NCBI GenBank assembly: GCA_944392295.1
Contig: CALXWE010000008.1
Span: 12,474 to 76,473 of the forward strand
DNA: 64,000 nucleotides
Source: an uncultured Alphaproteobacteria bacterium
GTDB taxonomy: Bacteria; Pseudomonadota; Alphaproteobacteria; RF32; CAG-239
Direction: 5' to 3'
The notes under the pieces were generated by a model. That model had not been told where the DNA came from. It did no database searches and saw only the letters and a program-made list of their open reading frames with translations. Below are positions 2,557-44,505 of the stretch, piece after piece; the stretch's first letter is position 1, and each line of letters opens with the position of its first letter. The position numbers were made by a program, and so were the translations under genes.

Positions 2557-3674
2557 AAATGTTTTCTTATACACGAGCCGGAGCGATTTTTAAGAAAGAA
2601 TTCAAGCACATTTTTCGTGATCCTTTTACTTTGATGATGGCACTTTTACTGCCTCTTTTAATTGTATTGATTTTGGGAAATTGCATAGAATTTAATGTTC
2701 AGGAAATAGATTTAGCCTATTGGGACCAAGATAAAACCGAAAGCTCACGCAAATTGGTAGAAACTTTCGGCAGTTCGGATTATTTTCGTCCTTATGAAGT
2801 AACAAATCCGGATAAAGGCTTTGCCGATGTTGTCTCCGAACACGCCAAGGCGATGCTGATTATACCTCCCGAGTTTGAAAAAAATTTTGTAACGGGCCGC
2901 AAGGCAGATGTGCAAATCTTGTTAGACGGTGCAGATAATTCCTCCATTTCGGCCATTAACAATTACCTTAACACCATAAATACCGATGCCGTATATAAAA
3001 TAAAAGATATTCCGCCGGAAGATAATTCATTGTTGAAATTTAAAACACGGTATTTGTTTAACCCGGAATTAAATTCCAAATGGTTTTCTATTCCCGGAAT
3101 TTCGGCGGTAATTATTGCTTTAGTGGCGATTATGTTAACGGCTCTGACCATTTGTAAAGAGTGGGAGCAAGGTTCTATGGAAATGCTGCTTTCTACGCCG
3201 GTAACATCAACGGAAATAATGTTTGGTAAGCTTCTGCCGTATGCGGTTTTAAGCTTTTGCGGATTTATAATTGTATATGTGGCGGCGAGGCTGATTTTCG
3301 GTATACCGTTTGTCGGAAGTTATTTTATTTTAATTTTGGCTACCGTATTGTTTATTTTTGATTATCTGGCATTAGGATTATATGTTTCGGTCATAAGTCA
3401 TGAACAGCAGGTGGCAATTCAATATGCGGCAACGATAGGTTTGCTGCCGACGGCATTATTATCGGGATTTATTTTTCCGATTCAGTATATGCCGCAGATA
3501 TTTCAGTGGGTATCGGCTTTGTTTCCGGCCCGATTTTATATTGAGATATCCCGAGACCAATTTTTAAAAGCCAGTAGTTTTGAAGATTTAATCGTTCCGT
3601 TTACGGCACTTTTTATTCAGGCAGTGGTATTAATGAGTGCCTGTGTTTGGCGTTTTAGGAGGACCTTGGAATGA
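2553..3674 (+). CDS. ABC-2 type transporter permease
   Basis: N-terminal TM helix, a large periplasmic loop, then about five C-terminal TM helices typical of ABC-2 (YbhS/YbhR-like) permeases. Overlapping start and stop with neighbours. Confidence 0.8.
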   Translation: MKMFSYTRAGAIFKKEFKHIFRDPFTLMMALLLPLLIVLILGNCIEFNVQEIDLAYWDQDKTESSRKLVETFGSSDYFRPYEVTNPDKGFADVVSEHAKAMLIIPPEFEKNFVTGRKADVQILLDGADNSSISAINNYLNTINTDAVYKIKDIPPEDNSLLKFKTRYLFNPELNSKWFSIPGISAVIIALVAIMLTALTICKEWEQGSMEMLLSTPVTSTEIMFGKLLPYAVLSFCGFIIVYVAARLIFGIPFVGSYFILILATVLFIFDYLALGLYVSVISHEQQVAIQYAATIGLLPTALLSGFIFPIQYMPQIFQWVSALFPARFYIEISRDQFLKASSFEDLIVPFTALFIQAVVLMSACVWRFRRTLE

Positions 3675-13084: not shown

Positions 13085-14233
13085 CTACCAACGATGTTCG
13101 TCAGTAGTATTCTTGAGGTAGTCAACAAAAGCGTTGATGTTGTCTCCGCCTTTGTATTTTCCACCCAAGAAGGTCTGGTAATTCTCCAAATCAGCCCTGA
13201 GCTCACGCTCATAGCTTTCTTTGGAGAAAGCCCCCCTGGCGTGGAGATCGCTGAGGATGAGTTCCAAGACGGCGTCCTTGTGGGATACGCCATAGAGCAT
13301 TTCTGCTCCGTTAGGCCAGCCCATATTGTTGAACTTACGGATAAGCTGAACAAATGTGGACCAGTCGGCATCCTCAACCCCCGGCATCAGGTACCGCTCA
13401 GGATTTTGAGAGGTTGTTTTCCCCTCAAAAGTTACGGTATCCTTTTTGAGTGGCCAGATGGCTGCTGCAACATATCCGAGCATTATTTCGGACAGGCGCC
13501 CGTCAACGACCTCAAGGTCGTCAATAATCGGGCAGTGTGCCAGTACGAAGTTCATCTTCGCATCGGCATACCGGACGTCTTTTGCCTTTAGCAGGAATTC
13601 TGCCAAAACGCGTTTGTCATAAAACGCATTGCCGGAGCAGAGCACAAATGTCACCTCTTTACCTGCCTCTTTAGCGAACTGGTAAAGCTCGTCAAAGTTA
13701 CCGGCGGTATCGGTATCCTGGCACACACGCTCGTTGGCGCGAACGTAACTTCTTGGAGCAAGTTGCTCCAGAAGATTGATGTATGTCTTGTACTCGGCCT
13801 GATACATGATACCAGGCTGATTAAAGACTTCTTCATAGAGGCCTTTATTTCCGCCTAAACCAATAGGCAGAACCGGCAGCAGATCATCTGTCTGCTTGGC
13901 GTAAAATCGCACCATTTCCATGGTACAAAGATGCGCTGTCATAATCCCTGAGAAGCATACGGCAACCGGGTTGACCATATTTTTTGGCAGGTTATACAAG
14001 TCGCATACGCGAGCCTCTGACATTGTCCCTTGAGCGTTGGTGTATTTATACACTTCTCCGGGACGACATCCGCCGACACGTTCAGCCTCTTTAAGAACCT
14101 TTGCCCAATATTCAGGCTCCAGCTCTCGCGGTGCTAAAGCTCCCACGGTCTCATACACCTGACGTCTGCCGTCTGCATTGCAGCGGTAACCATTCTTTTC
14201 CAAAATTGCGATGATTTCTTTGCTTTTGTTCAT
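13085..14233 (-). CDS. hypothetical protein, anomalously GC-rich (likely horizontally acquired)
   Basis: 382 aa intact ORF. Local GC is about 48% against a mid-30s % background, and codon usage is visibly different (CTG, GGC, CCG rich). Own hairpin terminator at 13037..13060. No family recognised from sequence. Confidence 0.5.
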   Translation of the reverse strand: MNKSKEIIAILEKNGYRCNADGRRQVYETVGALAPRELEPEYWAKVLKEAERVGGCRPGEVYKYTNAQGTMSEARVCDLYNLPKNMVNPVAVCFSGIMTAHLCTMEMVRFYAKQTDDLLPVLPIGLGGNKGLYEEVFNQPGIMYQAEYKTYINLLEQLAPRSYVRANERVCQDTDTAGNFDELYQFAKEAGKEVTFVLCSGNAFYDKRVLAEFLLKAKDVRYADAKMNFVLAHCPIIDDLEVVDGRLSEIMLGYVAAAIWPLKKDTVTFEGKTTSQNPERYLMPGVEDADWSTFVQLIRKFNNMGWPNGAEMLYGVSHKDAVLELILSDLHARGAFSKESYERELRADLENYQTFLGGKYKGGDNINAFVDYLKNTTDEHRW

Positions 14234-17656: not shown

Positions 17657-19206
17657 TATGCCGCCTTTTCAGAAGCTGTAAATTCATTTAACTGTTCGGT
17701 ATAAAAAGCCTTCAACTTCTCTTCCAATTCCGGCGAAATTATCTTTTGTTTGGCAATTTCTTCCAGATATTCTGGGTGTTGAGCTTTTAAGGTCTCCAAC
17801 GATTTTTGCTCAAACTTTTTAATATCGCTGATATTAACTTTATCTAAAAAGCCATTAACACCGGAAAAGATGGAAACGACTTCATCTTCAACCGCCATCG
17901 GATGATAAACCGGCTGCTTTAACAGTTCGGTTAATCTGGCGCCTCTGTCCAGCAAGTTTTTGGTAGAAGCATCCAAGTCGGACGAAAATTGCGAGAATGC
18001 CGCCATTTCACGGTACTGAGCCAAATCCAACTTCATACTTCCGGCAACTTGTTTCATAGCTTTAATTTGTGCCGAAGAACCTACACGGCTAACCGAAATA
18101 CCGACATTTACGGCCGGACGAACACCCTGATAGAACAAACCTGTTTCCAAGAATATTTGTCCGTCGGTAATGGAAATAACATTAGTCGGAATATATGCGG
18201 AAACGTCTCCGGCCTGAGTTTCAATAACCGGCAAAGCGGTTAAAGAACCTGCACCTTCTTCATCGTTCATTTTGGCAGCTCGTTCGAGCAAGCGGGAGTG
18301 CAAATAGAACACATCTCCGGGGTAAGCTTCACGCCCCGGCGGACGACGGAGCAACAACGACATCTGACGATAAGCCGTTGCCTGCTTGGAAAGGTCGTCA
18401 TAAAAGATAACGGCATGCATACCGTTGTCGCGGAAATATTCACCCATTGCGCAACCCGAATAAGGAGCAATAAACTGCAGCGGGGCCGCTTCAGAAGCGG
18501 TGGCGGCAACTACGATGGTATAATCCATAGCGCCATAATCTTTTAAGGTTTTAACAACCTGAGCCACCGAAGAACGCTTTTGACCTACCGCAACATAAAT
18601 GCAGTAAAGTTTATCTTTTTCGGATTTAGCAGCATCATTAATTTTTTTCTGATTGATAATGGTATCCAAGATTATGGAAGTTTTTCCGGTTTGTCTGTCG
18701 CCGATAATCAGCTCGCGTTGTCCTCTTCCGATAGGAATTAAGGCATCAATGATTTTTAAACCTGTTTGTACCGGTTCGTGCACGCTGCGGCGTTCAATAA
18801 TGCCCGGAGCTTTAACTTCCGAGTTGCTGAATTGCTTAGCTTTAATTTCACCCAAGCCGTCAATCGGTTCACCTAAGGCATTAACAACACGACCTAAAAG
18901 TTCTTTACCGACCGGAACGCTAACAATTTTATCGGTGCGTTTAACCGTATCGCCCTCTTTAACACTTTCATCTGAGCCGAACAAAACCACGCCGACGCTG
19001 TTTTCTTCCAAGTTTAAGGCCATACCTTTAACGCCGGATTCAAACTCGACCATTTCATTGGATTGGACGTTGTTAAGACCGTAAACCTGAGCGATACCGT
19101 CGCCGACGGATAATACGCGGCCAACCTCGCTCATATCGGTATCGAGCTTATATTGCTCAATTTTTTCTTTTAAGATTGATGAAATTTCGTCAGCTTGTGT
19201 AGACAT
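17656..19206 (-). CDS. atpA: F0F1 ATP synthase subunit alpha
   Basis: GDRQTGKT P-loop; conserved throughout. Confidence 0.97.
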
Positions 19207-22809: not shown

Positions 22810-24732
22810 ATGCATGGACTTCACCCTTTGATAATAGATTTAACTTTAATTGCCATTTATGCGGCAATTACGACATTAATTTTTAAAAAGCTCAAACAAC
22901 CTATGGTATTAGGCTACTTATTGGCGGGTATTTTTGCCGGTCCGTATTTTAATTTTGTGCCCACGGTAACCGACAGAGCCAATTTAACTTTATGGGCAGA
23001 TATCGGGGTCATTTTTTTGTTATTCAGTTTAGGGCTGGAATTTAGTTTCAAAAAGATGATAAGCGTTGGTAAATCGGCGATGATAACGGCAACTTTAAAC
23101 ATTTTTTTGATGTTGTTTGTGGGCTATTACATCGGTCTTTTTCTTAACTGGACAGCCATAGACAGTTTCTTTTTAGGTTCCATGATTTCCATGTCGTCGA
23201 CCACCATTATCATTAAAGCGTTTGATGATTTAAATGTTAAAAAACAAAAATTTACCGACTTAGTATTCGGAGTTTTGGTAATTGAAGACATTATGGGAAT
23301 TTTATTGTTGGTATTGCTTCCGACGGTAGCTCTTGGCAGCGGCATAAACGGCGAGCAACTGGGCTTTGACGTATTAAAGCTGCTGTTATTTTTAGTAATA
23401 TGTTTTGTAACCGGCATTTACTTAATACCGACAATGCTTAAAAAGATTGACAATTTTTTAAACGATGAAATGTTGTTGGTAGTAACGATAGCCTTGTGCT
23501 TAAGTATGGTATGTCTGGCGGTATATTCCGGTTTTTCATCGGCATTAGGGGCGTTTATTATCGGCTCTATTTTATCGGAAACGGGAGCGGTAAAGCGTAT
23601 AGAGGGGGTTATTAAGCCGTTAAAAGATTTTTTCGGCGCGGTCTTTTTTGTAACGGTAGGTATGATGGTAGATCCGTCAATGTTTGTTACGTACGCATAT
23701 CCGATATTTATAATAACCTTGGTGGTATTAATGGGTAAAGTTGCCTTTTCGGTATTTGGCTTTGTGATTTCGGGGCAAAATTTAAAAACGGCGATAAGCA
23801 GTGGCTTTTCTTTAGCGCAAGTCGGCGAGTTTGCCTTTATTATTGCGGCTTTAGGTATGAGCTTGGGAGTAATTGATGGTTTTGTATATCCGATTATCGT
23901 AGCGGTATCGGTCATCACCACTTTTTTAACGCCGATTATGATAAAATCGGCAAGTCGGGTTTATAAGCTGGCAGATAAGTTACTTCCTTTGAGCTGGCAA
24001 GAATACATCAACAATAGTTCGCAATACGGGGTTACGACGGTAACCGAAGAGAAGCTGTGGAAGGCACTATTTAAGAGTTATTTTTTGCGAATGTTTTTAT
24101 TTTCGGCCATATTATATGTGATAATCGCCTTTGTTGACAGAATGGTTCGCCCTTACGCAGCGATGATTTTACCTGATATGCCCAAGCGAATATTTTTAAC
24201 GATGCTTGCGTTTGTGATGATGGCGCCGTTTTTAAAAGCGTTAACGAGTTGGAGTTTTGTTGTGCCCGATTTATTAAACAAGGTACTAATCAAAATGCAT
24301 TTAAGAAAAGCCGTAGACAGCGGTCATGACAAGTGTGAAGGAAATATGCCGATAAACAACGCCTGTGTCCCCTCATCACAAACTTTAATAAGAGAGGTAT
24401 TAAAAGGCGGCAATATTACTGATTTTTTGGCATCCAACCAACGGATTGCACGTATTTATGCCGTGTTGTGGTACGATAGACCTGCCAATCGGCTGCCGCT
24501 GCTGATATTAACCGGCATGAGACTGTTGCTGGCGGCATTTTTCATTGCGACGGCGGTTTACCAGTTTTTGACTGAAAATACCAAAGTCGTAATGATTTTG
24601 TTGGTCTTTTCCGTATGGCTGATTATGCAGTCTAAATGGCTGCTCAACCAGTATTTAAAAATCGAGAACCAGTTTTTAAGCAATTTGCACGGTGAGCCGA
24701 GCGACGATACCGATAGCCGCGACCAAGCTTAG
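22810..24732 (+). CDS. cation:proton antiporter (CPA2 / Na+/H+ exchanger family) with an extra C-terminal membrane domain
   Basis: About 12 TM helices with CPA-like profile (GLEFS, GAFIIGSILSETG). C-terminal 250 aa hydrophobic rather than a KTN domain. Confidence 0.65.
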   Translation: MHGLHPLIIDLTLIAIYAAITTLIFKKLKQPMVLGYLLAGIFAGPYFNFVPTVTDRANLTLWADIGVIFLLFSLGLEFSFKKMISVGKSAMITATLNIFLMLFVGYYIGLFLNWTAIDSFFLGSMISMSSTTIIIKAFDDLNVKKQKFTDLVFGVLVIEDIMGILLLVLLPTVALGSGINGEQLGFDVLKLLLFLVICFVTGIYLIPTMLKKIDNFLNDEMLLVVTIALCLSMVCLAVYSGFSSALGAFIIGSILSETGAVKRIEGVIKPLKDFFGAVFFVTVGMMVDPSMFVTYAYPIFIITLVVLMGKVAFSVFGFVISGQNLKTAISSGFSLAQVGEFAFIIAALGMSLGVIDGFVYPIIVAVSVITTFLTPIMIKSASRVYKLADKLLPLSWQEYINNSSQYGVTTVTEEKLWKALFKSYFLRMFLFSAILYVIIAFVDRMVRPYAAMILPDMPKRIFLTMLAFVMMAPFLKALTSWSFVVPDLLNKVLIKMHLRKAVDSGHDKCEGNMPINNACVPSSQTLIREVLKGGNITDFLASNQRIARIYAVLWYDRPANRLPLLILTGMRLLLAAFFIATAVYQFLTENTKVVMILLVFSVWLIMQSKWLLNQYLKIENQFLSNLHGEPSDDTDSRDQA

Positions 24733-25460
24733 TTCATAAACTTGGTATAAAAAGTATAGTGTATGTAGTACGAAAAGTTTTTTTCGTAGCTGTCAGGGCT
24801 TCCGCAATAGGAGTATATCTCATTTAAGCTGATGGTACGTAAACATCCGGCATAATCATGCATCGTAACATATTGGCAGTTAGAATCTCCATAAATTCTA
24901 CCCACTGAAAAATCCGAATTGGCCGTCCATATTTGCATATAAAATAACTTATCGCTATAGCCTTTGGCAATACTTAGCATATTTACGCATTGTTCATGGG
25001 TGGTAAAGACAAGTTGAAATGTGCAGTAATTAGCATCACACTGCAGTGCCATAACTTTATTATTAAATATGTCATATATCTGATTAGTTTTTTTATTGAG
25101 CATCTCATCAGGGACAATGCCGAGCTTAATTAACATATCTTTGGTCAGCTGCGACTTATCGGAAGAGGGAATGCGCGCGGCAGCCATACAAAGACCATCA
25201 AGAATAGCGGAAATCTGCTGGGTTTGCCGGTTAAGTTTGTACTTGTTCATCGCTTTAGAATATCCGGCAATAGCGCCGACGGAAAGTACGCCGATTATGG
25301 CAAGAACACCGAGCATTTCAACCATGCTTCTTCCGGAAAAAGTCGCATCTACTGGCGATTTTGCTCCTCGTGTACCTTTTGTTGTACACGTCGTTACAAA
25401 ATTGCTGCGTATCTGCAGCTTTTTTCGGAAGAATGACCGCCTCAGTTCATAAAATTTCAT
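24729..25460 (-). CDS. type IV pilin-like protein (prepilin-type class III signal peptide), paralog 1, carrying a 36 aa in-frame insertion in the leader
   Basis: GRSMVEMLGVLAIIGVLSVGAIAGYSKAM: Gly(-1), Glu(+5) and a 20 aa hydrophobic helix typical of pilin N-methylation domains. Cysteine pairs in the variable C-terminal half. Confidence 0.6.
   Translation of the reverse strand: MKFYELRRSFFRKKLQIRSNFVTTCTTKGTRGAKSPVDATFSGRSMVEMLGVLAIIGVLSVGAIAGYSKAMNKYKLNRQTQQISAILDGLCMAAARIPSSDKSQLTKDMLIKLGIVPDEMLNKKTNQIYDIFNNKVMALQCDANYCTFQLVFTTHEQCVNMLSIAKGYSDKLFYMQIWTANSDFSVGRIYGDSNCQYVTMHDYAGCLRTISLNEIYSYCGSPDSYEKNFSYYIHYTFYTKFMN
25326..25433 (-). mobile_element. 108 bp RPE-like miniature palindromic element inserted in-frame in pilin paralog 1
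   Basis: Absent from paralogs 3 and 4 at exactly this point (between ELGRS and MVEML). 15 bp terminal inverted repeats TTCTTCCGAAAAAAG / CTTTTTCCGGAAGAA. Internal CGTGTAC..GTACACG stem. Length is a multiple of 3. Confidence 0.6.
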
Positions 25461-25545
25461 CTAAAAGCCTCCGAGTTTGGGTTGTTAAAGGCATTTAAAC
25501 GAAATCATAAACCGTTTTTTTTTTTTGCAATCAAAAAGAGTCCCG
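25461..25545 (-). promoter_or_regulatory. conserved upstream module of the pilin-like gene family (copy 1) with a 12 nt poly-T/A tract
   Basis: ctaaaagcctccgagtttgggttgttaaaggcatttaaacgaaatcataaaccg-T12-gcaa. The same module is found upstream of all four paralogs. Contains TTGCAA and TATGAT hexamers on the coding strand. Confidence 0.5.
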
Positions 25546-25585
25546 TGTTGAAAAACGAGCTGTGGCAGGCTTTAAAAACAACGAG

Positions 25586-26038
25586 TTAGCGTTTTTGCTT
25601 AAAGAAATCTTTCAAAATTATTGAAGACTGCTCTTCCAAAATACCGTAAGTTACTTGCGGCTTATGGTGGCAGGTCGGCTGATTAAAAAATTGCACACCG
25701 CTTACAACGGCTCCGCCCTTTGCATCAACTGCGCCAAAAATTAAACGGCGGATTCGGGCAAAAGAAATGGCGGCGGCACACATAGTACAGGGTTCTAACG
25801 TAACATATAAATCCAAATTCCAAAGTCGTTTACTGCTAAGCTTTTTGCAAGCCTTATTTATTGCCGTAATTTCGGCGTGGGCAGTTGGGTTATTGCCATG
25901 TTCGGTTTTGTTATAAGCCTTGGCAACAATTTTCCCGGTATCTGGGTCAACAATTACAGCACCTATCGGAACCTCATCTTGAGTATAGGCTTTTTTAGCC
26001 TGTTTTAAGGCAATTTGCATAAAATCTTCGTCGGTCAT
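25586..26038 (-). CDS. tadA: tRNA-specific adenosine deaminase
   Basis: HAEITAI and PCTMCAAAI zinc-binding CDA motifs. Start at internal ATG 26036..26038 (MTDEDFMQIAL); the ORF-track start further upstream is TTG and would add a hydrophobic N-terminus. Confidence 0.85.
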   Translation of the reverse strand: MTDEDFMQIALKQAKKAYTQDEVPIGAVIVDPDTGKIVAKAYNKTEHGNNPTAHAEITAINKACKKLSSKRLWNLDLYVTLEPCTMCAAAISFARIRRLIFGAVDAKGGAVVSGVQFFNQPTCHHKPQVTYGILEEQSSIILKDFFKQKR

Positions 26039-26106
26039 AAATATCCTTTGAGTTTTTAAAAATTTAGAGTATATTACAGCAAAATTTACAATTAGGAAAG
26101 ATAAAA

Positions 26107-26829
26107 ATGGCAGAAAGATTAGCAAAGTTTATGGCGCGTTCGGGAGTGTGCTCCAGAAGAGAGGCGGAAGAGTATATCAAGCAAGAGCGCGTAACCGTAA
26201 ATGGTGAAGTTGTTTCAACGCCGGCATTTAATGTTGAAGGCACGGAAAAAATTTTGTTTGATGGCGAGAAGTTGCCGCAAAAAGATAAAACTCGTCTGTG
26301 GCTTTACCACAAACCGGCAGGTTTAATTACTACCCACAAAGATGAACAAGGACGCGAAACGGTATTTAGTCATCTACCACTCGGTATGCCCAGAGTTATA
26401 AGTGTCGGCAGACTTGATTTAAATTCGGAAGGGTTGCTTTTGCTTACCAACAACGGAGAGCTTTCAAGAGAACTGGAACTGCCGCAAAATGCATGGAGCC
26501 GTCGTTACAGGGTAAGAGTTCACGGTAAAGTTGATAAACAAAAACTGGAGAGTTTGGCTGGAGGTGTCGAGGTCGACGGTATAGCTTATGGTAAGGTTGT
26601 TGCGGTCATAGATTCTCAAAACGGCAGCAATGCATGGCTTACGGTGACTTTAAACGAAGGTAAAAATCGCGAAATTCGTAAATTAATGAAATTTATTGGC
26701 TTGGAGGTAGCTCGTTTAATCAGAGTTTCGTACGGACCGTTTCAACTCGGAAGTTTAAAAAAGGGCGAGGTTCGCGAAGTACCGCAAAAAGTGCTAAAAG
26801 AACAACTGGGCGGAAGATTTAGTTTATGA
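26107..26829 (+). CDS. rRNA pseudouridine synthase (RsuA/RluB family) with N-terminal S4 domain
   Basis: S4-like MARSGVCSRREAEEYIKQERVTVNGEVV followed by LWLYHKP ... GRLDLNSEGLLLLTNNGEL catalytic motif. Confidence 0.8.
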   Translation: MAERLAKFMARSGVCSRREAEEYIKQERVTVNGEVVSTPAFNVEGTEKILFDGEKLPQKDKTRLWLYHKPAGLITTHKDEQGRETVFSHLPLGMPRVISVGRLDLNSEGLLLLTNNGELSRELELPQNAWSRRYRVRVHGKVDKQKLESLAGGVEVDGIAYGKVVAVIDSQNGSNAWLTVTLNEGKNREIRKLMKFIGLEVARLIRVSYGPFQLGSLKKGEVREVPQKVLKEQLGGRFSL

Positions 26830-27371
26830 GAATAATTGCCGGAAAATATCGCGCTAAAAAACTGTTTGCACCGGAAAATAAAGATGTTCGTCCTACTTCC
26901 GACAGAGCCAGAGAAGCGCTTTTTAGTATTATCTATTCACGTATTGGCAGTTTAGATTCATACAAAGTGCTGGATATTTTTGCCGGTACCGGGGCTTTTG
27001 GCTTTGAGGCTTTGTCAAGAGGCGCCTTAAAAGTGTGCTTAATTGATAAAAATGTTAAACTTATCAACAAAAATCTAAGTTTGTTTGCTAAAGATGCGCA
27101 AAGAGTTAAGGTTTTATGTACAGATGCCTTGAATCTGCCTAATAGCTTAGAGAGCTACAATTTGATATTTTCAGATGCTCCTTATGCTCAAGGTCTAAGC
27201 TCTAAGGCGTTAATTGAAGCTGCCGGCAAGGGCTGGATAGCAGATAATGCTTTGTGTTTGGTCGAAACCCGTAAAGACGAAAGTTTAGATTTGCCGGAAA
27301 ATTTTATTTCTCTTGATGCAAGAATGTACGGCTTGGCTAAGGTATGGTTTTATACCTACAAAAAAGATTAG
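26826..27371 (+). CDS. rsmD: 16S rRNA (guanine966-N2)-methyltransferase
   Basis: VLDIFAGTGAFGFEALSRGA SAM-binding motif and DAPY motif. Overlaps the preceding gene by 4 bp. Confidence 0.8.
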   Translation: MRIIAGKYRAKKLFAPENKDVRPTSDRAREALFSIIYSRIGSLDSYKVLDIFAGTGAFGFEALSRGALKVCLIDKNVKLINKNLSLFAKDAQRVKVLCTDALNLPNSLESYNLIFSDAPYAQGLSSKALIEAAGKGWIADNALCLVETRKDESLDLPENFISLDARMYGLAKVWFYTYKKD

Positions 27372-27460
27372 GCTTAAAATTTTTTTGACAAAAATATTGA
27401 TATTTGATTTATAGTGTGGTAAATTTCAAGTAACATTAAGTAAAAAATACGGAGTTTTTT

Positions 27461-29524
27461 ATGGCACGCACTTACCTTAACATCAATACGGTTAATCATA
27501 GTCATCAAAACAACAGCTATGAAAATATTCAGCAAGAGCTTGATAAAAAAGAGCAAGATATTCAAAACAATCTTACACGGATTCGTGAACAGATGCTCAA
27601 CTCCGGTGAGGGTGATGATAGCGCATTAAAAGCCGAAGCGGAAGCGTATCGGGCAAGACTTAGCCAAACATTGGAAGATAAGGAATTTTTAGAAAAATAT
27701 CCTGATACTTTTCCTTATTTATATTCGTTCCGTGAGCATGGAGAAATTGACGATATTTCAGGTAAGTTGACTGAAGTTCTTGATGATGAGCAAGAGATTA
27801 TTACGGAAGCGCAAGATGTTAATCCGAAAGAAGAGCGCTTGGAATTATCTTATGAGCTTGATGGTGTCCCGTTTAGTGTTTCGGTTGATCCGTATGACAA
27901 ACCCGGCGAAGATGATCGTCAATTAAGAGGTCGTATAAGTTTTACCGATAAATCAATTGAAGAGCTAAACGAATCTCGGTTAAAGGCTATTTTAGAATTT
28001 TGTGAGAAGCACGGTTTTTCATCGTATGATATAGATATTCCTATGAAAGACGGAGTTGTCGATTTAGATGAAAAGTTGGCTGAATTAACTAAAAAGGTTC
28101 TGGAAGAGAAAAAACAGCAAGATATTGCAAATCCTGGAGCCGGACCGGAAGATCTTTCCCCTGAGCATTTTAATGTTTTAGAGACACAACTTGATGATTT
28201 AAATTTGGAGGCTGATGGCAAAACTCCAATTAAAAAGGCTAAAAAACCTCAAACTTATGAAGATATTCGTGCTGCGATGATTGAAATGTTTGAGCAGGAT
28301 ATGAAAAAGACCAGAGGTTTAAGCTATTTTGAAAATCGTAAAGGTTTAGACGGTCTGAAAACAGCAGTTTTTAGCATTTATGACAAGCCGGATCCCGACA
28401 ATATGAAAAAAGACGGTATTAAAGATAAGAACGGTATTTATGTACCGACCTATGCCTTTCGTTTTTACTTGGCGCAAGATCCTAAAGACGGACACTACGT
28501 ATTCGGCTATTCAACTCCTGGCGGCAAAAAAATGGATGACACCATGGCCGGCGACTTTTTAGGTATAGTTAAAAAGACCGGAGCGACACACGTTAAATTT
28601 TCATCTTTATCAAGTGTTGATAAAGGCGTATGGATGATGGCGTGTGCTGAAAAAGGGTTAGTTCCGATAGGAATAAGTCTTAATATGGCCAAAGCTAAAA
28701 AGATGGTAGATGCTGCCAAGAATAAATTAAGCTCTGAAGAGTTTAACTTATTTAAAAAACGCTTAGGCGCGCAGATGCTTGAAAATGCCCAAAAGAAGAA
28801 TGCTGATGATAAATACTTCGGCTTACCGAAATCCGAGTACGATTTTATTCAGAATTTGAAGACCGGCTATGAGTTCAGCAACTTCAAGTTTGCCTTTGAA
28901 GACGAGGGAGGTCTATATACGACTACCATGCAAAAGATTAACGAAGGCGCATCAGACAGCAAAGAAGGAGCTGCAACCACGTTCGGAGCCATGAGTGCAT
29001 TAAGAGATGTGTTTGATATTTATATGAAATATCAGCATGAACCGTTTGGTAAATTCCTGCAAGAAGGTACGAGTGGTCGCCGAGAGCTTACCAAAGAAGA
29101 GTTAGATACTTTAAAGATGATTCCTGCTGACAGATCTTTTATGGATTTAACCAAGGAAGACTTTATGGCAATTTACAACACATTGTTGCCTCGTCGAATT
29201 GAGGATGCAAAGCAAGATATTTACAAGGCTTACAGACGCGAGTTGAAACGTAAACCGCAGCGTGCCGACGGTGTTGTTTTAGGTAGCGATTTATTCCCGA
29301 AAGTTAAGGCGGAAGTTAATGGCATTAACATTGCTCTAACGAGAAACGGTATAGATACCTTAACATTACCGAATGAACACAGCGGTTTGGAGTTTGCCCG
29401 TCCTGATTGGCTGCAACCGGGAGCGCAAAATACGCAAACTACGCAGCAAAGTAATACCAATCAATCAACGGCAGGAAATGCTGCAGTTAATGCTCAAGCG
29501 CAGAATGCCGGTAACTCAAGGTAG
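27461..29524 (+). CDS. large acidic hypothetical protein with Q/N/T-rich C-terminal low-complexity tail (lineage-specific; candidate secreted effector)
   Basis: 687 aa, no signal peptide or TM helices. Charged coiled-coil-like N-terminus. C-terminal QNTQTTQQSNTNQSTAGNAAVNAQAQNAGNSR tail. Followed by a strong bidirectional terminator. Confidence 0.5.
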   Translation: MARTYLNINTVNHSHQNNSYENIQQELDKKEQDIQNNLTRIREQMLNSGEGDDSALKAEAEAYRARLSQTLEDKEFLEKYPDTFPYLYSFREHGEIDDISGKLTEVLDDEQEIITEAQDVNPKEERLELSYELDGVPFSVSVDPYDKPGEDDRQLRGRISFTDKSIEELNESRLKAILEFCEKHGFSSYDIDIPMKDGVVDLDEKLAELTKKVLEEKKQQDIANPGAGPEDLSPEHFNVLETQLDDLNLEADGKTPIKKAKKPQTYEDIRAAMIEMFEQDMKKTRGLSYFENRKGLDGLKTAVFSIYDKPDPDNMKKDGIKDKNGIYVPTYAFRFYLAQDPKDGHYVFGYSTPGGKKMDDTMAGDFLGIVKKTGATHVKFSSLSSVDKGVWMMACAEKGLVPIGISLNMAKAKKMVDAAKNKLSSEEFNLFKKRLGAQMLENAQKKNADDKYFGLPKSEYDFIQNLKTGYEFSNFKFAFEDEGGLYTTTMQKINEGASDSKEGAATTFGAMSALRDVFDIYMKYQHEPFGKFLQEGTSGRRELTKEELDTLKMIPADRSFMDLTKEDFMAIYNTLLPRRIEDAKQDIYKAYRRELKRKPQRADGVVLGSDLFPKVKAEVNGINIALTRNGIDTLTLPNEHSGLEFARPDWLQPGAQNTQTTQQSNTNQSTAGNAAVNAQAQNAGNSR

Positions 29525-29547
29525 AGTTATTTAAGATTAAGCAATTA

Positions 29548-29580
29548 AACAAAGCCGCCTTTTAAAAGGCGGCTTTGTTT
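29548..29580. terminator. bidirectional rho-independent terminator (AAACAAAGCCGCCTTTTAAAAGGCGGCTTTGTTT)
   Basis: Perfect 12 bp stem with A/T runs on both sides, sitting between convergent genes. Confidence 0.7.
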
Positions 29581-29588
29581 GGTTTTGA

Positions 29589-30293
29589 TTATTTTTGTAG
29601 CAAAATCATTAATCTTTTAAATCCGTTTTTACAAATAGTTAAAGAATCTGATGTGTCTAATCTAGGGTAAGCTGAATTTGAATTATGAGTTCCTTTGTAT
29701 ATTGCTGTATTGCCATCGTCGGTAAGAAGGCTGGTACTGCTGATATTATCATAATAAAGTTTGGTAACGTTCATCATCTGTATGCAATAGGCAATATTAG
29801 TCTCATTAGATGCAGTAAGATTTTCGTTGATTGTAAAATACATCCTCCGCCAATCGGTTGTATCCTGTATAACTATTTGATTTTCCAAACTGTCAAAAAG
29901 CCTATCTGTGTAGCCGTCTTTCAACATATATTCCGGCACGCTGTCAAGTGTTATAAGGTATGGTATAATATTGTCCGTGTTACTGTTGCCGTTTTTTGGG
30001 GTTTTTGATTGTAGATATTCAAATGATACTGAGAGTAGATAACTTAATTCTTGAGAGCTTTTATTTAATCGATATTTTAGTATTGCCTTAGAGTAGCCGG
30101 AGAGAGCGCCGACCGATAAAACACCGATTATCGCCAATACTCCAAGCATTTCGACCATGCTTCTTCCGGAAAAAGTCGCATCTACTGGCGATTTTGCTCC
30201 TCGTGTACCTTTTGTTGTACACGTCGTTACAAAATTGCTGCGTATCTGCAGCTTTTTTCGGAAGAATGACCGCCCGAGTTCATTAAATTTCAT
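29589..30293 (-). CDS. type IV pilin-like protein, paralog 2, with the same 36 aa in-frame leader insertion
   Basis: N-terminal 70 aa nearly identical to paralog 1. Divergent C-terminal domain. Confidence 0.6.
   Translation of the reverse strand: MKFNELGRSFFRKKLQIRSNFVTTCTTKGTRGAKSPVDATFSGRSMVEMLGVLAIIGVLSVGALSGYSKAILKYRLNKSSQELSYLLSVSFEYLQSKTPKNGNSNTDNIIPYLITLDSVPEYMLKDGYTDRLFDSLENQIVIQDTTDWRRMYFTINENLTASNETNIAYCIQMMNVTKLYYDNISSTSLLTDDGNTAIYKGTHNSNSAYPRLDTSDSLTICKNGFKRLMILLQK
30159..30266 (-). mobile_element. 108 bp RPE-like palindromic element, second copy, in-frame in pilin paralog 2
   Basis: Sequence essentially identical to the 25326..25433 copy, at the same position of the gene. Confidence 0.6.
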
Positions 30294-30375
30294 CTAAAAT
30301 CTCCAAAGTTTGGGTTGTTAAAGGACTTTAAACGAAATCATAAACTGTTTTTTTTTTGCAACTTTAAAAGGAGCC
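30294..30375 (-). promoter_or_regulatory. conserved pilin-family upstream module (copy 2), poly-T tract of 10 nt
   Basis: ctaaaatctccaaagtttgggttgttaaaggactttaaacgaaatcataaactg-T10-gcaactttaaaagga. Confidence 0.5.
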
Positions 30376-30709
30376 GCGTAGATGATGCCTTTTTAAAAGC
30401 TTGTTTTTTACAAGTTGAAAATTGCTTTAAAACAACAGAATATACTTGCAAATTAAAAGAAAATGGTGTAAAAAAATCGCAAATTAAAAGCCTATTATTT
30501 GGTGAATCTGGTCCGAGTTTGGCTTTATGCCTAGGGGTTCGGCCGATTCGGCCGTATTTTTTTGCGTTTGTGAAAATGCTTAAAAATATGTAAAAAACGT
30601 TTTTTATATTAACCTTCTGTTTGCGGGTTTTGGTATTATCGGTTAGTGCCGTAATAATGCCGATAGAATGGCTGCAGAATTATAGCTTAAAGAAAAGGAT
30701 AAAAGTGCA

Positions 30710-39096
<8,387 letters not shown>

Positions 39097-39113
39097 GCTA
39101 AAGCCAAATAACA

Positions 39114-39146
39114 AAAAACCGTGCTTTTTTAAGCACGGTTTTTTGT
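39114..39146 (+). terminator. rho-independent terminator of rpoBC (AAAAAACCGTGCTTTTTTAAGCACGGTTTTTTG)
   Basis: Perfect 9 bp stem followed by a T-run, 18 bp after the rpoC stop. Confidence 0.8.
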
Positions 39147-39189
39147 ATCCCCAAAGCCCTACATTTTAGGGGTTGTTTGAGATAGACAG

Positions 39190-39822
39190 TCAAGGTATTA
39201 AATTGAAATATAACACGCAAGCTTTTTCGGAATAACAAGTATTGCAGATTTGATCAATATCGCTAATCGACATATTTTTTAGGCAATTAACTTTTGAAGT
39301 ACAGTAATTATTACCGTAAAGTATGCCAGTTTTGTTTCCAAAGCCATCGGTTAGATGGACATAATATACATCATTAACAAACTGTCGGGCAATGTTTAAG
39401 ATATTGATGCAAACTTGTTTATTTTCATTATCTATGGTCATATTGCTTCCTGATCCAGAATCGTCTTTTTTTAAGTATGTTGTAAAATGATAATATATAC
39501 CATCATATAATATATCTATAACATTGTTAAAATTATCGTAAATCTTGCTTCCCTTATACGTCATACCGTCTGGAACAAGGTTTAGTTGGTAAAAAATTTT
39601 ATCTAATATATGAGTTTCTTCAGCATAGTTATAATTATGCAAATATTCTCGAAATCGGACACCGTTTGCTATAAGAGTGCTAAAAGCTTCAGCGTGTTTA
39701 TTGAGTTTATATTTAAGCATTGCTTTGGAATAACCCGAGATAGCCCCAACCGATAAAACGCCGATTATTGCCAGCACGCCGAGCATTTCGACCATTGACC
39801 GTCCAAGTTCATAAAATTTCAT
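39190..39822 (-). CDS. type IV pilin-like protein, paralog 3 (short leader, no insertion)
   Basis: MKFYELGRSMVEMLGVLAIIGVLSVGAISGYSKAMLKYKLNK followed by a divergent Cys-rich C-terminus. Confidence 0.6.
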   Translation of the reverse strand: MKFYELGRSMVEMLGVLAIIGVLSVGAISGYSKAMLKYKLNKHAEAFSTLIANGVRFREYLHNYNYAEETHILDKIFYQLNLVPDGMTYKGSKIYDNFNNVIDILYDGIYYHFTTYLKKDDSGSGSNMTIDNENKQVCINILNIARQFVNDVYYVHLTDGFGNKTGILYGNNYCTSKVNCLKNMSISDIDQICNTCYSEKACVLYFNLIP

Positions 39823-39905
39823 CTAAAATCTCCAAAGTTTGGGTTGTTAAAAGACTTTAAACGAAATCATAAACCGTTTTTTTTTTTTGCAACTTTAAAA
39901 GGAAA
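39823..39905 (-). promoter_or_regulatory. conserved pilin-family upstream module (copy 3), poly-T tract of 12 nt
   Basis: Same 80 bp module as the other copies. Confidence 0.5.
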
Positions 39906-39918
39906 AGCCGTGTAAAAC

Positions 39919-40545
39919 TTACCCTGCGCGAACAAAGCCCCAAGAAAATCCAATGCGGCAGTATCCCGATTGTTGACAAGTACGGCAATATTCTTGCATA
40001 TCAGTCAGCTTCAAATCTTTAAGACAATCTCGATTATCGGTACAATATTCATCACCATCGGTTGCCAAAATTGTTCCACCGTCCAATAAAAAGGAGAAAT
40101 GCCATAAAGAGGCGCTGCGCTGTTGCATTAATTTTGCAATATTAAAGCATACATCAATATCTCGTTTAGAAACAACTATGTTCATACTAAAATATGTACC
40201 AACTTGCTCTTTTACGTATTCGACTTTTGTTTGATTGCCGAGGGCATCGTAGATAGAAACGTCATTGTCGGTTCGAATCATTTCATCGGGGATGATGTTC
40301 ATTTTTTTTATCAATGACATAAATTTTCCTGGATCGGTAGATATATTGCCACGGTCACGGCTAAATTCATCGGCGTGAATTAGTAAATTATCCATAATAA
40401 AAGTGATTTGGTCTGCTTGTTTATTAAGTTTATATTTTAACATCGCCTTAGAATATCCGGCAATAGCGCCCACCGATAAAACGCCGATTATCGCTAAGAC
40501 ACCTAACATCTCGACCATAGAACGACCAAGTTCATTACATTTCAT
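39919..40545 (-). CDS. type IV pilin-like protein, paralog 4 (short leader)
   Basis: MKCNELGRSMVEMLGVLAIIGVLSVGAIAGYSKAMLKYKLNK followed by a divergent Cys-rich C-terminus with CxxC. Confidence 0.6.
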   Translation of the reverse strand: MKCNELGRSMVEMLGVLAIIGVLSVGAIAGYSKAMLKYKLNKQADQITFIMDNLLIHADEFSRDRGNISTDPGKFMSLIKKMNIIPDEMIRTDNDVSIYDALGNQTKVEYVKEQVGTYFSMNIVVSKRDIDVCFNIAKLMQQRSASLWHFSFLLDGGTILATDGDEYCTDNRDCLKDLKLTDMQEYCRTCQQSGYCRIGFSWGFVRAG

Positions 40546-40625
40546 CTAAAATCTCCAAAGTTTGGGTTGTTAAAGGGCTTTAAACGAAATCATAAACCGT
40601 TTTTTTTTTTGCAACTTTAAAAGGA
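40546..40625 (-). promoter_or_regulatory. conserved pilin-family upstream module (copy 4), poly-T tract of 11 nt
   Basis: Same module. Confidence 0.5.
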
Positions 40626-40667
40626 AAGCCGCCCCAAGGCAGCTTGTTTTTTATTATAAGTATTTTT

Positions 40668-43834: not shown

Positions 43835-44505
43835 TTAGCCGGTGGTTCTTCTTTAACGGGTGTAACCCTAATTGTACCAGCAAACGCCTTAATGGCGTAT
43901 GACGGCCTGACAGAGCGAAGATTACTTGCTACCCGTAAACGGGTCAAAATCCATCGTTAATTGACTTTGTTCCGCGTCTTCTTTAAGTTGATTTCGAATA
44001 TACTCAGTAATTTTTTGAGTATTCTTTCCTGTTGTATCTACATAATATCCACGACACCAAAATTCTCTGTTTCTATATCGGAATTTTGCATTTCCCCACC
44101 GTTCATATATGGCTAAACTACTTTTACCTTTGAGATAGCCCATAACCGAACTTACCGAAAATTTTGGCGGTATCTCTACTAACATATGAATATGATCGGG
44201 ACAAACTTCTGCTTCTATTATGCTTATTCCTTTCCATCGGCATAATTCTCTTAATATTTGACCTATTTCTAGACGACGTCCTCCGTAAAACGCTTTTCTA
44301 CGATATTTAGGGGCGAAGACAACATGATATTTACAATTCCATGTTGTATGTGCTATTGTATGTGTGTTCATAAAAAAACTCCTTTGCTTTTGTTAGACTT
44401 TTGCCAGACCGTCTAACCTTACTTTAGCAAAGGAGTTTTTTTTGTGTAAAGCTGTAAGCTCTTTGGAACTACCGGCCTAGCCGGTAGTTTTCTTGTTACA
44501 AAAAC
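43835..44505 (-). mobile_element. IS200/IS605-family insertion sequence (about 670 bp) bounded by related subterminal hairpins
   Basis: Hairpins ACCCACCGGCTTAGCCGGTGGTT (43838..43860) and AACTACCGGCCTAGCCGGTAGTT (44478..44500) flank a complete Y1 transposase gene. Confidence 0.65.
43922..44371 (-). CDS. tnpA: IS200/IS605-family Y1 (HuH) transposase TnpA
   Basis: 149 aa. HIHMLVEIPP HuH motif and a catalytic Tyr region (RGYYVDT) characteristic of IS200 TnpA. Confidence 0.85.
   Translation of the reverse strand: MNTHTIAHTTWNCKYHVVFAPKYRRKAFYGGRRLEIGQILRELCRWKGISIIEAEVCPDHIHMLVEIPPKFSVSSVMGYLKGKSSLAIYERWGNAKFRYRNREFWCRGYYVDTTGKNTQKITEYIRNQLKEDAEQSQLTMDFDPFTGSK

Follow-up and report, generated by a model that had tools for sequence, protein, structure and literature searches.

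Promoter homopolymers are known to tune the expression of surface proteins in several bacteria. As summarised for Mycoplasma hyorhinis in PMC10502178 (citing Citti & Wise 1995), every vlp paralog has a poly-A tract in its promoter, and indels of A residues switch each gene independently. In Bordetella pertussis, the length of a C-stretch in the promoters of fim2, fim3 and fimX sets transcription (10–15 in fim2, 13–18 in fim3), and a one-base difference in fimX produces a 3.8-fold change in transcript (PMC1891110). Promoter homopolymers are also described for Neisseria meningitidis nspA (A5/A6; PMC6389960) and Helicobacter pylori sabA (a T-tract; PMC2715451). Here we analyse a 64-kilobase (kb) stretch of DNA from an uncultured alphaproteobacterium (the window; contig CALXWE010000008.1), in which four paralogous pilin-like genes are each preceded by a conserved module that contains an uninterrupted A tract. 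We judge it moderately probable that this tract is a slippage-prone promoter spacer, which would confer heritable and reversible changes in the expression of individual pilin paralogs.

The closest analogues of this arrangement are the vlp poly-A tracts and the fim C-stretch. As in vlp, a family of paralogous surface-protein genes is involved in which each gene has its own conserved 5′ module and promoter A tract, and in which the genes vary in size and sequence too. The vlp products, however, are mollicute lipoproteins encoded by clustered genes, whereas the genes described here encode type IVb-pilin-like proteins of a Gram-negative organism and are scattered beside housekeeping genes; and whereas the vlp tracts switch their genes, switching here is something we infer from sequence. 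The ON length in vlp is approximately 17 A residues, and the mode here is 12. With the B. pertussis fim genes the present family shares paralogous pilus or fimbrial subunit genes and a conserved promoter element with a long homopolymer upstream of the −10 element. The Bordetella tract is poly-C and spaces the BvgA activator site from the −10 element, whereas here a poly-A tract separates a −35-like from a −10-like hexamer; natural length variation at most loci here is also narrower than at fim.

The resemblance to the other two systems is looser. N. meningitidis likewise has homopolymers in or near the promoter spacers of surface-protein genes, where single-base changes modulate expression and differ between close isolates; porA, opc and fetA carry such spacer tracts. 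These are single genes with other tract compositions and lengths, in contrast to the family-wide conserved module found here. In H. pylori, the T/A homopolymer beside the promoter of the adhesin gene sabA differs in length between strains. It is situated upstream of the −35 element and not in the spacer, the gene has a coding-region repeat as well, and its expression follows a 'rheostat' model that is graded and not all-or-none. The mechanism considered below is thus a familiar one, and what is new is the lineage and the gene family that would use it. At the sequence level, the hallmarks of promoter-repeat phase variation appear to be present: sufficient repeat length, a promoter position that comparison makes probable, clonal polymorphism at one locus and a surface-protein target.

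Pilin-like genes and their upstream modules

The window contains exactly four genes whose products have a GRSMVEML-type N terminus (G-RSMVEMLGVLAIIGVLS). All four are on the minus strand and they flank rpoB and rpoC (Table 1). The sequence G-RSMVE-MLGVLAIIGVLSVGA is invariant across the four and has the features of a type IV pilin N terminus, a G|xxxxE cleavage motif and then a hydrophobic α-helix. An AlphaFold2 model of the 208-amino-acid (aa) protein (predicted local distance difference test score, pLDDT, 85; built on 34 homologues) has a helix at residues 8–56 and predicts the pilin arrangement of a helix on a β-sheet head with C-terminal cysteines; the conserved cysteines are residues 133, 168, 174, 187, 190 and 196. 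The best matches of this model to the PDB in Foldseek are type IVb pilins, headed by Vibrio cholerae TcpA (8uhf_H; E 9e-5, template-modelling (TM) score 0.54), with 9iuf_A, 1oqv_A and CofA (3s0t_A) as other top matches and a type IVb pilin of enterotoxigenic Escherichia coli among the best.

Curated sequence models are less informative. A Pfam scan of the pilin-like proteins returned no match, N_methyl included, and NCBIfam yielded only sub-threshold matches to prepilin N-terminal models: TIGR02532 scores 10.1–10.5 bits for the four window proteins and at most 13.8 bits in a relative, below its cutoff of 16.3. Residue +1 in the window proteins is Arg, not Phe or Met. The label 'pilin-like' is therefore justified by motif and predicted fold and not by curated models. 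The family is large, with more than 7,600 database matches at E < 1e-5. No prepilin peptidase, assembly ATPase or assembly platform protein was found among the window proteins scanned, which represent a minority of the window's genes.

On the coding strand each module has the layout TTTTAAAGTTGC-A(n)-C(G/A)GTT-TATGAT-TTCGTTTAAAG...GGAG...ATG. There is one module per gene, each 54 nucleotides (nt) upstream of the ATG, and the 16-mer AAACGAAATCATAAAC occurs in exactly four mismatch-free copies, one in each. Read directly from the plus strand, the tracts are poly-T runs of 12, 10, 12 and 11 nt in the order of their coordinates. A census of homopolymers found no others of at least 9 nt in the window (39% GC), in which the remaining A/T runs reach at most 8 nt. 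In all four modules the A tract lies on the minus strand between TTGC(AA) and TATGAT. Lengths, positions, assignment of one tract to each paralog and flanking hexamers are all exactly as the original prediction had them. Its further statement, that tract length is all that distinguishes the copies, was too strong: the paralogous modules are 2–8 substitutions apart in the 54 nt from tract to ATG and 0–6 apart in the 14 nt upstream. Its argument for slippage from differences between paralogs is accordingly weak, because paralogs differ by substitutions too.

Table 1. Coordinates of the pilin-like genes and of the module elements in the window
Feature	Position	Strand	Remarks
Pilin-like gene, 208 aa (MKCNEL-G/RSMVEML..., slash at cleavage site)	39919..40545	-	Type IVb pilin-like predicted fold
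Pilin-like gene, 210 aa	39190..39822	-	Tandem, downstream of 39919–40545
Pilin-like gene, 234 aa	29589..30293	-	36-aa in-frame palindromic leader insertion; divergent from rpoB
Pilin-like gene, 243 aa	24729..25460	-	Same 36-aa in-frame palindromic leader insertion, absent in other strains
A11 tract (T11 on plus strand), length-variable copy	40600..40610	-	Putative promoter spacer of pilin-like gene 39919–40545
A12 tract	39877..39888	-	Putative promoter spacer of pilin-like gene 39190–39822
A10 tract, then CAGTT where others have CGGTT	30348..30357	-	Putative promoter spacer of pilin-like gene 29589–30293
A12 tract	25515..25526	-	Putative promoter spacer of pilin-like gene 24729–25460
−35-like hexamer TTGCAA (TTGC plus first two A residues of tract)	40609..40614	-	TTGC invariant in all modules, seven species
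Equivalent −35-like TTGCAA hexamers	39887–39892, 30356–30361, 25525–25530	-	
−10-like hexamer TATGAT, 5 nt downstream of tract	40589..40594	-	TAAAAT, TAGAAT or TAAGAT there in relatives
Equivalent −10-like TATGAT hexamers	39866–39871, 30337–30342, 25504–25509	-	
Terminator-like hairpin after CitMHS transporter gene, abutting module	40626..40645	-	8 base pairs (5 G-C), tail rich in T
Weak terminator-like hairpin after deaminase gene	25542..25559	-	Directly upstream of 25515 module

Putative promoter position across seven species

Homologous loci were collected from six further species-level groups, making seven species with the window. They comprise a related metagenome-assembled genome (L017), the P0010 species (L043–L052; RpoC 92% identical to that of the window), a member of the window's genus (L053; RpoB and RpoC 98% identical) and the groups L054–L057, L058–L059 and L075–L079. 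Exact-pattern scans of genome and metagenome contigs with GTTTATGATTTCGTTTAAA yielded L017 as the one true relative, and the other 26 matches were rejected as chance matches.

An A tract of at least 9 nt is present in all 39 pilin-like genes for which at least 90 nt of upstream sequence is available, and in the relatives it ranges from A9 to A14 after TTGC. The core conserved across species is TTTaAAaTTGC-A(n)-(C/T)G(G/A)TT-TAnnAT, set in surrounding sequence that diverges. The hexamer takes the forms TATGAT, TAAAAT, TAGAAT and TAAGAT, in which T1, A2, A5 and T6 are invariant and positions 3–4 vary, a pattern consistent with that expected of a −10 element; downstream of the hexamer the sequence is unrelated between genera. 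Spacing between TTGC and the hexamer is also maintained. The P0010 species has a 7-nt segment, CGCGAGC, before TAAAAT and a tract of A9 or A10, the species with a 5-nt segment have a modal A12, and the distance is 17 nt for both designs.

The surroundings of the modules in the window also bear on their role. Terminator-like hairpins for the upstream minus-strand genes lie immediately before two modules, and because the hairpin that follows the CitMHS gene abuts its module, the pilin gene beyond it needs a promoter of its own. The terminator scan found no terminator between the tandem genes 39919–40545 and 39190–39822. Upstream of gene 43531 in the same window lies AAAGTTGCAAG-N16-TATAAT, and its occurrence before another gene makes TTGCAA plausible as a −35 element in this organism. 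The tract would then account for the greater part of a sigma-70-type promoter spacer.

Two other promoter classes were considered and rejected. A sigma-54 promoter with TTGC as its −12 element is contradicted by the absence, in every species, of a GG 12 nt upstream. For sigma-28, whose −35 consensus is TAAAGTTT, the resemblance of TAAAGTTG is accompanied by no GCCGATAA-like −10 element, and the P0010 species does not retain the motif. In L017, a gene for a LuxR-type response regulator (receiver plus helix-turn-helix domain; 2975–3595) lies immediately upstream of a pilin-like gene with an A10 module, and its product could regulate the module.

Tract length in near-clonal assemblies and its interpretation

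Orthologous copies in near-clonal assemblies, not paralogs, are the informative comparison for slippage. Look-ups by exact protein sequence found this strain again in several metagenome assemblies. At the 40600 tract, the window and BRZ_IN align over 6627 nt with 0 mismatches and a single gap, which is the tract itself (11 versus 12 A residues); the alignment with BRZ_SR covers 6634 nt, is likewise free of mismatches and has one gap (11 versus 10); and the one with SAMEA6814547, also mismatch-free, covers 1819 nt and has one gap of 3 nt (11 versus 14). Further copies have 10, 12 and 12 A residues, with no flanking mismatch. Lengths of 10, 11, 12 and 14 are thus found at one locus in four assemblies, in contig interiors whose flanks are mismatch-free over 1.8–6.6 kb. 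In the SAMEA6814543 assembly, one scaffold ends past TTGC-A10-CGG... and another begins TTGC-A12-CGG..., the two overlapping by ~40 nt and left unmerged, which suggests that both lengths were present in the sample. Contig breaks at the module were otherwise rejected as general evidence of heterogeneity, because a four-copy repeat would break assembly graphs anyway; this scaffold overlap alone was kept, as suggestive.

We propose the following mechanism. Each pilin-like gene would have its own sigma-70-type promoter, TTGCAA–spacer–TAnnAT, with a spacer made up mostly of the uninterrupted A tract. The tract would be long enough for replication slippage to add or remove A residues, and each such change would shift the −35/−10 spacing by whole base pairs (bp). 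Altered spacing should raise or lower transcription of that single paralog, heritably and reversibly (phase or 'volume-control' variation). Because A12 is conserved (or A10 with a fixed segment that is 2 nt longer), we take the modal length to be the functional setting, and lengths of 10, 11, 13 and 14 would be altered-expression variants. A14, notably, would give the canonical 17-bp spacer. The sequence comparisons support slippage and the promoter-spacer position; that RNA polymerase uses the hexamers, that length affects expression, which lengths would be ON and that the genes switch ON and OFF are points that we infer.

Several observations weigh against this mechanism. The spacer from TTGCAA to TATGAT is n+3, or 13–15 bp in the window, whereas other promoter-like sites there have spacers of 16–17 bp, and a consensus promoter scan (16–18 bp) for this reason does not call the modules. 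The predicted placement of the tract in a −35/−10 spacer is supported by the TTGC and TAnnAT positions kept across species and by the hairpins upstream of two modules, and is weakened by the short spacers. The prediction of slipped-strand length change, similarly, holds for the 40600 tract on its invariant background but not for the other three in the assemblies sampled. The 39877 tract is A12 in all five assemblies, the 30348 tract is A10 in both assemblies that cover it (BRZ_IN included), and the 25515 tract is A12 in 10 of 11, among them strains that differ by 0.6% in the flanks and by 7–13% in the pilin allele; the sole A11 comes from a contig of 2.9x coverage. Approximately 16 kb spanning these three modules is 100% identical between assemblies. 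The BRZ_* and ONAT22-1_* assemblies, moreover, may re-assemble the same read sets. Given three invariant tracts, variation is lower than is usual for classical contingency loci: most loci look as if kept at a favoured length, and wide variation in contingency-locus style is seen at one paralog of a single clonal lineage. The original interpretation as a whole is therefore partly supported.

Length constraint extends to the relatives. A12 is a strong, near-fixed mode across strains and species: the five P0106-species assemblies all have it, as do L053, L058 and L059, and lengths in L054–L057 are 12, 12 and 13. Such constancy resembles the outcome of stabilising selection on length more than that of free switching. 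In the P0010 species both tracts of at least 9 nt are length-variable (2 of 2, versus 5 of 203 runs of 5–8 nt). The A9 alleles cluster phylogenetically, however, and a polymorphism that tracks local phylogeny suggests one event and not frequent switching; we therefore rejected it as evidence of fast switching.

Alternatively, the tract may be a fixed promoter element with a structural or protein-binding role, for example a rigid A-tract spacer or a device for activator spacing (compare BvgA at the Bordetella fim genes), kept at A12 by selection, with variants that are sporadic and neutral or mildly deleterious. The predominance of A12, the coherent phylogeny of the P0010 alleles and the response-regulator gene directly upstream of the pilin gene in L017 all fit this explanation, and the compensation between segment length and tract length implies selection on distance. 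Selection on distance only would, however, let substitutions build up and so predicts interrupted tracts, and there are 0 interruptions in the 39 genes. Among nine distinct modules with a 5-nt segment, 21 of 39 flank columns vary versus 0 of 10 shared tract columns. Either mutability or a property specific to the A tract must then be maintained, and an uninterrupted tract of preferred total length appears to be under selection, at lengths in the range expected for slippage (~8–9 nt or more). The presence of four lengths at one paralog, on an otherwise unmutated clonal background, indicates that variants arise often and are tolerated. A sequence-specific role of the A tract does not, moreover, preclude mutability. 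We consider a purely fixed element the main rival, though less probable than the switch.

The length differences might instead be technical, arising from stutter in Illumina sequencing or the polymerase chain reaction or from assembly-graph errors in a module repeated four-fold, with tracts that are biologically constant. Coverage is low (1.8–14x, as read from the contig names), several contigs break within or beside the module, and the lone A11 at 25515 lies on the 2.9x contig. Two A14 calls at contig ends (L002 and L055) have corrupted flanks, reading TTTG or TTG for TTGC, and were set aside as probable artefacts. The four interior lengths at 40600, however, span 4 nt with perfect flanks. 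The equally long A12 of the neighbouring gene never varies on the same contigs, which argues against generic sequencing error. Nor is mixing between paralogs a ready explanation: the A10 alleles at 40600 retain the CGGTT of their own locus and so did not come from the paralog at 30348, which has CAGTT, and for A11 or A14 no paralog could have served as donor. Generic sequencing error or paralog mixing is thus unlikely to account for the variation at 40600, and we regard a technical origin as improbable. 

It is more improbable still that the tract lies outside the promoter, as part of the 5′ untranslated region of a transcript starting further upstream or as the T-run of an opposite-strand terminator: a weak 5-bp stem (AAACG/CGTTT) does precede the T-run on the plus strand, but it is too weak for the terminator scan to call and plus-strand gene ends are found at 0 of 4 sites, for which reasons the terminator was rejected, and the hairpins of upstream genes immediately before two modules, the −10-like conservation of TAnnAT and the lack of conservation between genera downstream of it all speak against a position outside the promoter.

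Cassette replacement, leader palindromes and possible surface variation

The pilin bodies are 87–93% identical between strains whose flanks are 99.2–99.4% identical. Different alleles at the same site, together with the predicted type IVb pilin fold, are what would be seen for a surface structure under diversifying selection, and surface proteins of this kind are typically phase-controlled. The pilin genes act as replaceable cassettes between conserved modules (24729–25435 compared with L065–L073, and 39190–40545 compared with L060), and the drop in identity from the upstream flank to the bodies places the break at approximately codon 8. A second strain in SAMEA6814545 has alleles of 198 and 204 aa after the same CitMHS gene. 

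Two of the window genes carry a 108-nt near-perfect palindrome in frame in the leader region, at 25326–25434 in gene 24729–25460 and at ~30159–30267 in gene 29589–30293. The insertion places 36 extra aa between MKFYEL and GRSMVEML, and its RNA is predicted to form a single long hairpin (minimum free energy −47.7 kcal/mol, z −6.0). The first of these loci lacks the palindrome in other strains, where the alleles encode 207 or 208 aa versus 243 aa, and database homologues have N-terminal insertions of the same or another kind. Rickettsia palindromic elements insert in frame into genes, and the leader palindromes resemble them.

Further repeats and partial modules occur in the relatives. In the P0010 species, L048 (~17910–18000) has the upstream half of the module as far as the tract, followed by unrelated sequence (CTCCGGTTCGTTTAAGAATCGGAG...) and no pilin gene, which suggests a rearrangement with a breakpoint at or beside the tract. 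In L043–L052 a further A8–A9 tract of comparable layout (~13809–13828; TTGCG-A9-CAGC-TAGAGT) lies upstream of a 294-aa gene. Palindrome-rich repeats (such as CCATAAATTTTTTGGACCCCTAGTATTC...CTCATAGGGGTGAC) lie in the long intergenic regions before the pilin modules, ~300 nt upstream of the pilin gene in L054, L056 and L057 and ~330 nt upstream in L075–L077, and are possibly further small mobile repeats. Elsewhere in the window, positions 44381–44489 on the minus strand match the Rfam family STnc490 with 58.5 bits, against a gathering score of 56; this Hfq-binding small RNA family is enterobacterial, and the match, unexpected in an alphaproteobacterium, may be a borderline false positive.

A broader reading can be offered only tentatively. 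The A-tract module may be a mutable switch, maintained by selection across a very large and previously uncharacterised family of type IVb-like pilins in uncultured alphaproteobacteria, which together with cassette replacement and the presence or absence of palindromic leader elements would generate combinatorial surface variation. The slippage mechanism proposed above, for its part, would not surprise a specialist, but with a tract conserved throughout the family, compensation of its length and clean polymorphism in a clonal background, the A-tract switch is a well-grounded candidate in an uncultured lineage and can be tested directly. If the tracts do act in this way, they would provide a handle on strain-level surface variation in metagenomes, the source from which relatives of this lineage have been recovered, with tract length readable directly from the reads, and they would mark the pilins as probable targets of selection by hosts or phages. 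Under the same condition, this uncultured lineage of alphaproteobacteria would be using the contingency-locus logic of classical mucosal pathogens to vary a large family of type IVb-like pilins.

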